NCBI RefSeq assembly: GCF_003991155.1
Contig: NZ_CP031297.1
Direction: 5' to 3' (one strand)
Source of the DNA: Escherichia coli
Lineage (GTDB): Bacteria; Pseudomonadota; Gammaproteobacteria; Enterobacterales; Enterobacteriaceae
Length of the DNA stretch: 64,000 nucleotides
Part shown: positions 18,227 through 60,860 of the stretch, in pieces
How the letters are laid out: every line of letters begins with the position of its first letter
Numbering within the stretch: the stretch's first letter is position 1
Notes under the pieces: generated by a model
Databases searched by the model: none
The model's input: the letters and a program-made list of their open reading frames with translations, nothing else
Told to the model about the DNA's origin: nothing
Position numbers and translations under genes: made by a program

Positions 18227-18241
18227 TGCCCAAAATGGGCG
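18227..18241. promoter_or_regulatory. TGCCCAAAATGGGCG motif (third cis-element family)
   Basis: GCCC-N5-GGGC inverted repeat. Confidence 0.4.
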
Positions 18242-18311
18242 TGAGCAGGGGCGGGGTGTGAGGTCGTTCTAAGGCAAAATACTTTGTACTGGCAGAACAA
18301 AGAAAGAATGA

Positions 18312-18329
18312 ACTTTCACATGTGAAAGT
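18312..18329. promoter_or_regulatory. parS-like 18-bp perfect palindrome ACTTTCACATGTGAAAGT
   Basis: Exact; 2 bp upstream of ORF 18332. Confidence 0.6.
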
Positions 18330-18331
18330 TT

Positions 18332-19276
18332 TTGGGGTACGGGATGGAACAAGCAATTCAAAGTTACTTGGCTGACGACCGGCAATATCAAGACAGGATT
18401 ACCGCAGCTCTCAGCCAGGTTGAAGAGAAAGGTGCAGAGTACGAAGCTCTTTGCCAACAGCGTGCTCAGTTGGGGATCTGGCAAAAAATTATAACGTTCT
18501 GGCAGTTTCGTCGAGACATCGCCGTTATACGTTCAGCACTAAAAGGCCATAACAGCGATTTGCGGTATTTGCGCCGTGGGAGAGACCAGCTCAAAGAGGG
18601 ATTGGTTTCTCGGGCCGTGAAGCAAGCGATTGACGGTAGCCAGATTCTGGAACGAATCACCCAAGCTCAAGATAGGCTTGACGCCGCATCTCGACTCCAC
18701 GAGAGCAACAAGCGACTGGTGGACATGGGGCAAAAAGCCTTACGTGAAATCAGTGAGGCCTCTTCCAGTATTTCATCAGCACAAACAATGGAGGTTCTCG
18801 ACCTTGTGACTGACAACAAGGGCATTTCCGTCATGTCGTCGATGTCAAACTCCTCGGCCAGCAGTGAAATAGACGATGCGAAGAGAGCTGTGAAAGCCTT
18901 CGCAAATGCGCTGGGGGATCATCGTGACATTGTGGGCTCACTGCACCACTCAATGGCAACTGAGTTTATCGATCTGGGTATGGACTTTGCCGGTTTGAAT
19001 GATGGTTTCGACTTTGGGAGCGTCTTCTCGCTGTTCAGCTTGTCGTCTGCCAGTTCCTCTCTGGACAAAGTAGAGTCTCGCGTTGAATCTCTGATGCCAG
19101 ATCTAAGACGAGCCGCCTCCAATTCGGCAGCAGAGTATGCCCGTGTTAACGAAGAGTTCTTTGGCCTAAAACAACAGGCCTGTTGCCAAGTGCATGAGTT
19201 GCTGGTGACAAATGGTATAGACGTGTCAGTCAAGCGCGTTGAGTCCGCCGTGAACAGCTACAGAGTTGGAAGGTGA
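18332..19276 (+). CDS. hypothetical protein (coiled-coil-rich)
   Basis: 314-aa ORF. Confidence 0.45.
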   Translation: MGYGMEQAIQSYLADDRQYQDRITAALSQVEEKGAEYEALCQQRAQLGIWQKIITFWQFRRDIAVIRSALKGHNSDLRYLRRGRDQLKEGLVSRAVKQAIDGSQILERITQAQDRLDAASRLHESNKRLVDMGQKALREISEASSSISSAQTMEVLDLVTDNKGISVMSSMSNSSASSEIDDAKRAVKAFANALGDHRDIVGSLHHSMATEFIDLGMDFAGLNDGFDFGSVFSLFSLSSASSSLDKVESRVESLMPDLRRAASNSAAEYARVNEEFFGLKQQACCQVHELLVTNGIDVSVKRVESAVNSYRVGR

Positions 19277-60786: not shown

Positions 60787-60801
60787 GGTTCATTCCTCTC
60801 A

Positions 60802-60830
60802 AAGCCCGGTTCAGACCGGGCTTTTTTTTG
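60802..60830 (+). terminator. rho-independent terminator
   Basis: GCCCGGT-TCAGA-CCGGGC hairpin followed by T8. Confidence 0.7.
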
Positions 60831-60843
60831 TATCGCGCTGGAA

Positions 60844-60860
60844 TTGTCCAAATTGGGCTA
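60844..60860. promoter_or_regulatory. TTGTCCAAATTGGGCTA motif (third family variant)
   Basis: Upstream of DsbC-like gene. Confidence 0.35.

Follow-up and report, generated by a model that had tools for sequence, protein, structure and literature searches.

AcaCD boxes in the first 64 kb of the IncC plasmid pR148 and a probable additional AcaCD-dependent promoter at position 18227

Inverted repeats of the GCCC–N5–GGGC type recur ahead of conjugation genes on a multidrug-resistance plasmid, and one copy, at position 18227, precedes a long gene cluster instead. Which protein reads these repeats, and does the 18227 copy belong to its regulon? The window considered here (the whole stretch of 64,000 nucleotides that was analysed) corresponds to bases 1–64000 of pR148, a 165.9-kb IncC (IncA/C2) conjugative plasmid of Aeromonas hydrophila, as verified by sequence identity, which carries a MOBH relaxase and an MPF-F transfer system; the backbone within the window is more than 99% identical to that of hundreds of clinical IncC plasmids. 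Taken as a whole, the motif is almost certainly the AcaCD box, represented here by eight published sites and an inferred promoter at 18227. This box is the operator of an FlhDC-family heteromeric activator (AcaD plus AcaC) encoded by the same plasmid. The motif is already known from the literature; what remains new is 18227, a probable additional member of the regulon.

AcaCD boxes are the cis-elements by which IncA/C multidrug-resistance plasmids turn conjugation on, and genomic islands such as Salmonella genomic island 1 (SGI1) sense and hijack these plasmids through them. Correct recognition of the boxes is needed for promoter and operon annotation on clinically important IncA/C plasmids.

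AcaCD boxes along the window

AcaCD controls IncA/C transfer, and its sites on pVCR94deltaX were located by ChIP-exo and the associated transcription start sites (TSSs) by 5'-RACE (Carraro et al. 2014, PLoS Genet, PMC4207636). The core has been quoted as GCCCAAAATGGGC (Muranyi et al. 2016, PMC5058578), and AcaCD has been footprinted at the Pxis promoter of SGI1, with mutagenesis showing the 13-bp inverted repeat to be crucial for AcaCD-dependent activation (Kiss et al. 2015, PMC4605294). We scanned the window with a weight matrix of 29 nt, derived from the 19 published gene-facing AcaCD boxes as extracted from the pVCR94deltaX record according to Table S3 of the regulon study, the minus-strand coordinates of which are one base out of register relative to the plus-strand coordinates and were corrected before matrix building. 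Known boxes score 11.9–32.4 bits in leave-one-out tests, and nine loci of the window score 17.6–31.3 bits in the gene-facing orientation:

5649–5677, plus strand: vcrx012 box; core TGCCCGAATTGGGCA at 5654; same as pVCR94deltaX 6466–6494 over 29 nt; 21.8 bits
5620–5633: parS core just upstream of the vcrx012 box
18222–18250, plus strand: predicted AcaCD box of the 18227 locus; core TGCCCAAAATGGGCG at 18227; 17.6 bits (plus orientation), 20.9 bits (minus orientation)
32843–32871, plus strand: vcrx036 box; core at 32848; same as pVCR94deltaX 20382–20410
32839–32867, minus strand: vcrx035-facing box, overlapping the vcrx036 box; the pair scores 28.0 and 26.8 bits
42546–42574, plus strand: traI (MobH relaxase) box; core at 42551; same as pVCR94deltaX 35015–35043
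42542–42570, minus strand: box of the vcrx059-056 operon, overlapping the traI box; same as pVCR94deltaX 35010–35038; the traI/vcrx059 pair scores 28.5 and 29.9 bits
50250–50278, plus strand: vcrx068 box; core at 50255; same as pVCR94deltaX 42725–42753; 30.3 bits
50921–50949, plus strand: traL box (traLEKBVA operon); core at 50926; same as pVCR94deltaX 43396–43424; 21.6 bits
54139–54167, plus strand: internal traV box; core TGACCAGAAAGGGCA at 54144; same as pVCR94deltaX 46614–46642; 26.9 bits
55199–55227, plus strand: vcrx076 box, upstream of the gene for a giant Ig-like-domain protein; core at 55204; same as pVCR94deltaX 47674–47702; 31.3 bits
60840–60868, plus strand: dsbC box (dsbC-traC...traU operon); core at 60845; same 29-mer as pVCR94deltaX 53360–53388; 30.0 bits

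An earlier note on this DNA, made from the letters alone, had seen most of these repeats and had proposed that they bind a conjugation regulator. Its three near-identical copies are on the plus strand, TGCCCAAAATGGGCG being exact at 18227 and 32848 and departing by one mismatch at 50255; among the variants with two to three mismatches, 42551 and 55204 were placed correctly and 50925 and 60844 were each one base off, the cores starting at 50926 and 60845. The proposed function is borne out, as six of the seven noted sites (vcrx036, traI/vcrx059, vcrx068, traL, vcrx076 and dsbC) are published AcaCD boxes by virtue of base-for-base identity over 29 nt to the boxes of pVCR94deltaX. Indeed, every box mapped on pVCR94deltaX that falls within the homologous region has zero mismatches over 29 nt in the window, including two that the note did not list, vcrx012 (5649; core 5654) and traV (54139; core 54144). 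At the eight published sites the analysis turned up no evidence that speaks against this identification.

AcaCD binding (ChIP-exo, Table S3) has been published for sequences identical to eight of the window loci, as has RNA-seq induction of the downstream genes at these eight; start sites are published for all eight, among them one 63–65 nt from the box start at vcrx012 and a pair on both strands at traI/vcrx059 (PMC4207636). On the basis of those published experiments on identical sequences, the transfer targets of AcaCD in the window are traI-traD (relaxase and coupling protein), vcrx068, traLEKBVA, traV-traA, the giant Ig-like protein gene and dsbC-traC, and its non-transfer targets vcrx012-026, vcrx036-044 and vcrx059-056. 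The divergent vcrx059-056 operon includes topoisomerase III. A bias of the motif towards the transfer region, also claimed earlier, is real, but the regulon serves non-transfer operons as well: the boxes at 5649, 18222 and 32843 and the minus-strand box at 42570 are of this kind, as are about half of the 18 loci plasmid-wide.

The cognate activator genes, acaD and acaC, are on the same replicon as the boxes, outside the window. AcaD is encoded at pR148 161662–162270 (WP_000891157.1) and AcaC, of the FlhC family, at 162267–162818 (WP_001020646.1), and both accessions are the same in pVCR94.

In the published architecture, the functional site is an asymmetric element of about 29 nt, spanning roughly −64 to −36, with the 13-bp inverted repeat GCCCAAAATGGGC as its core at about −59 to −45 and a promoter-proximal extension (consensus AGTTACAGnG) that ends at about −36, where a −35 element would normally be placed. 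A weak −10 hexamer lies at box offset 53–58 and the TSS 63–66 nt from the box start. AcaCD thereby substitutes for the missing −35 element and recruits RNA polymerase. Given the absent −35 element, the one-sided extension in its place and the fixed distance to the −10 hexamer and TSS, AcaCD acts as a class II activator, and class II promoters with a fixed TSS distance have been published for it (PMC4207636). This geometry is reproduced in the promoters of the window, in which the −10 hexamers at the same offset include TAGAAT, GAGAAT, TAAGAT and TACACT; the sites are intergenic and gene-facing, with no −35 element and a −10-like hexamer at about 53–58 nt, the TSS at 18227 being a prediction. 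Intergenic DNA makes up only 8% of the window, yet by the RefSeq annotation eight of the nine loci lie wholly within it (binomial P about 1e-8); the exception, the traV box, is intragenic on paper, probably through a start codon annotated too far upstream.

The 18227 site and the gene cluster behind it

Among the nine loci, 18227 alone lies outside the published list of IncC AcaCD boxes and is a predicted site. The reason is that the plasmids used there lack the region: the published ChIP-exo, 5'-RACE, Cappable-seq and RNA-seq data sets come from pVCR94 derivatives, all without the 18227 box. Native pVCR94 lost a backbone segment of about 11 kb, such that its homologue of gene 17285–17782 is followed by IS26 and resistance DNA and then by the homologue of gene 28936. 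pVCR94deltaX is without window positions 14411–28925 (about 14.5 kb), and the eight genes restored in pVCR94Sp2 correspond to window 14419–17782. The features around the site are:

18153–18173, both strands: terminator-like hairpin, insulating the 18227 promoter from the upstream gene
18275–18280, plus strand: predicted −10 hexamer CAAAAT, at box offset 53–58 as in the mapped promoters
18285–18287, plus strand: predicted TSS of the 18227 promoter, from box geometry
18311–18332, no strand: parS AACTTTCACATGTGAAAGTTT, with an exact 14-bp core at 18314–18327, in the predicted 5' leader of the 18227 promoter
18344–29247, plus strand: gene cluster of 17 annotated genes; the first, 18344–19276, is the predicted AcaCD target

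The 18227 box was outside the matrix training set, and its core is an exact match to the consensus. Its promoter-proximal flank, GTGAGCAGGG, agrees with the extension in part, the conserved T of box position 23 being absent. A pattern scan of the plus strand from the upstream terminator as far as the start codon at 18344 detected no other sigma70-like promoter. In an IncA plasmid, 86.8% identical to IncC over this region, the 20-nt spacer differs at about half of its positions, while the box with its flank and the −10/TSS block are unchanged; retention of box and −10 block while the spacer diverges would be the classical footprint of a promoter. On account of the 17.6-bit match, the −10 hexamer at the canonical offset and the conservation in IncA, 18227 is probably an AcaCD-dependent promoter, apparently an unreported one, that serves gene 18344 and the cluster following it.

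A second element lies in the predicted leader. The 14-bp core of the IncC parS site, TTTCACATGTGAAA, flanked by AAAC and GTTT, has been defined with supporting EMSA data (Szabo et al. 2024, PMC10954446), and copies occur in the window at 4541, 5620, 9204, 9663, 14978, 18314, 29358, 32773 and 50192. The earlier note had held the GCCC-type repeat to be distinct from the other palindrome families of this DNA. In sequence it is, in that the AcaCD motif does not conform to the parS definition and the parS copies are separate elements; physically the two are not independent, parS lying within 100 bp of four boxes in the window. At 18227 the distance from the box start to parS is 92 bp, the same as in IncA, and parS follows the box and falls within the leader; at vcrx012, vcrx036 and vcrx068, by contrast, it precedes the box. 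This leader site would offer ParB, a KorB-type protein, a route to modulate the predicted promoter, making 18227 a potentially simple natural case of crosstalk between ParB (the partition protein) and AcaCD at a promoter. A parS site has been listed near "R55_29", and only four promoters combining AcaCD and parS were named, vcrx012, vcrx036, vcrx068 and traF, all from pVCR94 data (PMC10954446). By position, R55_29 would be gene 18344. The listing of parS there, with the AcaCD pairing named only from pVCR94 data, suggests that the 18227 box went unnoticed.

Pfam matches in this largely uncharacterised cluster include an orphan N6/N4 DNA methylase carrying an Mrr_N domain, an AAA+ ATPase, a DUF2997 protein and a ParB-HTH protein. 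Transfer does not require the cluster, since pVCR94 conjugates in its absence. The segment is retained in about 60% of IncA/C plasmid records (592 of 976 in one survey; 603 records in another), and about 40% of sequenced IncA/C plasmids lost it, as did the prototype pVCR94, through deletions associated with a resistance island. The first convincing plus-strand terminator after the start of the cluster is at 29267–29287, and read-through from 18227 to that point is plausible. Internally, a sigma70-like module with an embedded inverted repeat (TTTACAG[TC]ATCA-N5-TGAT[AG]CTATGAT) occurs at 19279 and 25217, so the downstream genes would not depend solely on AcaCD. Most of the cluster may be expressed without need of AcaCD, and the first gene, 18344–19276, is the only one that can be confidently assigned to the predicted 18227 promoter.

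Searching a protein database with the product of the first gene brought up distant IncA/C-like relatives at 52% and 45% identity. In these, parS lies immediately before the ribosome-binding site, and the module upstream is unrelated; a matrix scan found no AcaCD-type box upstream of the homologous operon at this 45–52% level of protein identity. The same contigs carry a strong vcrx012-type box with an adjacent parS (17–25 bits). When the plasmid collection was searched by tblastn for homologues further removed, only IncC/IncA-level records stood among the matches listed. Because the distant relatives are without a box at this operon, AcaCD control would not be ancestral and could be weak; it appears to be specific to the IncA/IncC lineage.

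That comparison lends some weight to an unlikely reading of 18227 as a non-functional or decoy AcaCD-type sequence, with the gene 18344 cluster under other promoters and controlled through ParB/parS or another repressor. Its proponents could point to the relatives, in which parS is retained and the box is not, as well as to the incomplete promoter-proximal flank, the internal sigma70-like promoters with an operator-like inverted repeat at 19279 and 25217 and the dispensability of the region for transfer. Against this stand the exact consensus core in a box that exceeds 16 bits, a level that 64 kb of shuffled sequence is expected to reach 0.05 times (the 95th percentile of its best score being 15.7 bits); a box and −10 block common to IncA and IncC across a diverged spacer; a geometry identical to that of validated promoters; and the lack of an alternative plus-strand promoter in the scan from terminator to start codon.

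A still less probable view takes 18227 as a bidirectional or leftward AcaCD site, giving rise to a transcript towards 18180 such as a short RNA or an antisense RNA to the open reading frame at 17886–18149. The minus orientation, with the flank ATTACAGAT, has the higher score in IncC (20.9 vs 17.6 bits); a perfect TATAAT occupies the minus strand at 18197–18202 (box offset 44–49), and divergent AcaCD promoter pairs are known at vcrx035/036, vcrx059/traI and vcrx086/087 (PMC4207636). However, this TATAAT is about 8 nt nearer to the box than the fixed geometry allows, the hexamer at the canonical offset being GATGCC, and a transcript started there would run into the bidirectional terminator at 18173–18153 within about 10–30 nt, in a stretch for which the annotation holds no minus-strand gene. 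The minus score also drops to 12.5 bits in IncA against 15.5 for plus, and published minus-orientation matches at traL, vcrx076 and dsbC reach up to 25.6 bits yet have no TSS.

We therefore favour the rightward AcaCD-dependent promoter for gene 18344. The full proposal, that the box is both functional and unreported and constitutes an eighteenth locus of the AcaCD regulon, with read-through into the cluster and dual control by AcaCD and ParB, has in our judgement a slightly better than even chance of being right. No prior report of the site was found with the core string or in the R55/R16a, parS, surface-exclusion and regulon/RNA-seq literature, a provisional result as some subscription papers fell outside the search; nor did this literature yield an AcaCD regulon study made on a plasmid with the full backbone. 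If the proposal holds, the published regulon is incomplete for the roughly 60% of IncA/C plasmids that retain the segment, and the 18227 module would have replaced, in a lineage-specific way, the sigma70-type promoter that more distant relatives possess. The extra box suggests that plasmids with the full backbone have a regulon larger by one promoter.

Specificity of the motif

Two readings would deny the motif as a whole its role as a protein operator. One, for which we see very little prospect, treats the repeats as structural elements, whether RNA hairpins, terminators or cruciform DNA. The GCCC and GGGC arms can pair, and RNA hairpins are predicted with energies between −1.7 and −13.7 kcal/mol. 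This wide variation in stem strength is itself hard to reconcile with a structural function, and stem-breaking variants (TGACC..GGGCA, TGCTC..GGGCA) are among the strongest ChIP peaks. An intrinsic terminator closes the 3' end of a transcription unit with a GC-rich stem and a T-run behind it; the motif sites stand upstream of genes and mapped TSSs, and none is followed by a T-run (one to three T in the next 12 nt), so the boxes are not terminators. Being upstream of the transcription starts, they are therefore not transcribed from those promoters. Conservation is asymmetric and extends past the palindrome, and published ChIP-exo, footprint and mutagenesis results refute the structural reading.

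The other, chance recurrence of a GC-rich palindrome, has nothing in its favour beyond the shortness of the core and can be set aside as a negligible prospect in view of the counts that follow, the intergenic placement and the identity to experimentally bound sites. The earlier note had proposed a weight-matrix scan with a background control and a comparison with shuffled sequence as the means of judging its motif. String matches to TGCCCAAAATGGGCG with at most three mismatches number nine in the window, all on the plus strand and including 5654 and 63632, where 2.46 are expected, and none of 100 shuffles reached nine; the motif is thus not as frequent in shuffled sequence as in the window. 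With the matrix, 16 positions reach at least 14 bits, counting both orientations of the palindromic core, against a mean of 0.14 in 300 dinucleotide shuffles. Across the whole 165.9 kb of pR148, the matches of at least 12 bits are all known boxes, with two exceptions, the 18227 locus and a weak candidate at 24082, and the accessory resistance DNA (about 40 kb) yielded zero matches at that threshold in the matrix scan.

Two further positions were considered and set aside. One is the three-mismatch string match at 63632; it falls within traC, reaches less than 8 bits with the matrix and is most simply put down to chance. The other, at 24082–24110 (14.2 bits, with TATGTT at the −10 offset), is no more than a weak lead: it sits inside a gene that is specific to IncC and lacks an IncA counterpart, and a shuffled window yields on average 0.14 matches of 14 bits or more.

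Relation to known activator systems

The closest counterpart is the published IncC AcaCD system itself, with which eight of the nine window loci agree in sequence, in the core GCCCAAAATGGGC, in the extension, in TSS distance and in the AcaD/AcaC proteins, 18227 being the single locus outside the published list. SgaCD, the FlhDC-SGI1 activator of Salmonella genomic island 1, recognises the same sites as AcaCD; it is encoded by the chromosomal island and not by pR148, and the window contains no SgaCD gene. Since the sites are shared, the boxes of the window are also targets for manipulation of the helper plasmid by SGI1.

SetCD of SXT/R391 is likewise an FlhDC-family heteromeric activator that works by class II activation without a −35 element (Poulin-Laprade et al. 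2015, PMC4344509). Its targets, traI, traL, traV, dsbC and traF, are equivalent to those of AcaCD in a syntenic MOBH/MPF-F system, whereas SetC and SetD share only 34% and 23% identity with AcaC and AcaD and the SetCD motif is, according to its authors, drastically different from the AcaCD and FlhD2C2 sites (PMC4344509).

FlhD4C2, the distant archetype, acts at the class II flagellar promoters of enterobacteria; it represents the homologous activator family and, as AcaCD does, activates sigma70 promoters from a site that lies upstream of the −35 region and adjoins it. FlhDC sites consist of two imperfect repeats of roughly 17 bp with a spacer between them, and they regulate flagellar genes. 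The AcaCD box, in contrast, has one 13-bp GCCC-N5-GGGC repeat, extended on one side, and it is conjugation genes that it serves.

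parS cores and sigma70-like promoters with an embedded repeat

The published core of the IncC parS site, which is bound by ParB, occurs in the window as nine exact copies, against 0.03 expected by chance.

parS core TTTCACATGTGAAA, exact matches: 4541, 5620, 9204, 9663, 14978, 18314, 29358, 32773, 50192

Four of these nine copies lie less than 100 bp from an AcaCD box, the 29-nt operator of the FlhDC-family activator AcaCD. At vcrx012, vcrx036 and vcrx068 parS is located upstream of the box, whereas at the box with its core at 18227 it is found downstream instead, within the predicted leader. 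A second recurrent element is a sigma70-like promoter, TTTACA-17-TATGAT, with the inverted repeat CAG[TC]ATCA-N5-TGAT[AG]CT inside it.

Sigma70-like promoters with the embedded inverted repeat
17830-17858, plus strand: upstream of ORF 17886; from the pattern search
19279-19307, plus strand: upstream of the AAA+ ATPase gene; degenerate copy, from the promoter scan
25217-25245, plus strand: upstream of the ParB-like gene; from the pattern search
32923-32951, minus strand: in the interval from the 32848 AcaCD box to the start codon at 32962; from the pattern search

The pattern search returned three copies (17830, 25217 and 32923) compared with 0.00 expected, and the repeat looks like the operator of some plasmid repressor. 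The earlier note had set two palindrome families apart from the AcaCD-type motif; the parS copies are probably one of these and the promoter-embedded repeat probably the other.

Gene boundaries at ORF 17886-18149 and traV

ORF 17886-18149, which carries no annotation in this RefSeq record, encodes a cysteine-rich product of 87 amino acids with CxxC-type motifs. A promoter-like element of its own precedes it, its Shine-Dalgarno sequence is good, and it is equipped with a terminator; a Pfam comparison gave no match. Homology ends within this ORF, at about 17944, in approximately 384 of 976 related plasmid records, and this position is the breakpoint of a resistance-island-associated backbone deletion that is also present in pVCR94.

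For traV, the start codon was probably annotated too far upstream, at 54125. Transcription dependent on AcaCD has a published start site at 54202-54204, and the ATG at 54206 opens a typical lipoprotein signal, MLGVGAALLILSGC. A start at 54206 would make the traV mRNA nearly leaderless and the traV AcaCD box intergenic.

Further AcaCD-type candidates

A weak AcaCD-type candidate, ATTATCGTCCAGATAGGGCTAATCGCCAT, lies at 24082-24110 within gene 24040-24609 (14.2 bits on a matrix of 19 published boxes), with TATGTT at the canonical −10 offset. IncA has no counterpart of the surrounding segment, ~23891-24485. The candidate could be an internal promoter, as at traV, or could reflect a chance match. 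Directly upstream of the 32848 box, a tandem ACGCCCAA-ACGCCCAA at 32819-32834 looks like a half-site of the AcaCD core (GCCCAAA) in repeated form.

A strong AcaCD-type box, CTTTGAGCCCGAATTGGGCAACTAGCCGT (25.4 bits), is found at 3931-3959 of metagenomic contig SRR15430509_4284 (L016), directly before an Endonuclease_1-domain gene and close to parA/korB-type genes. The homologue of gene 18344 on this distant element is only 38% identical, and the AcaCD-type motif family therefore reaches well beyond IncA/IncC.
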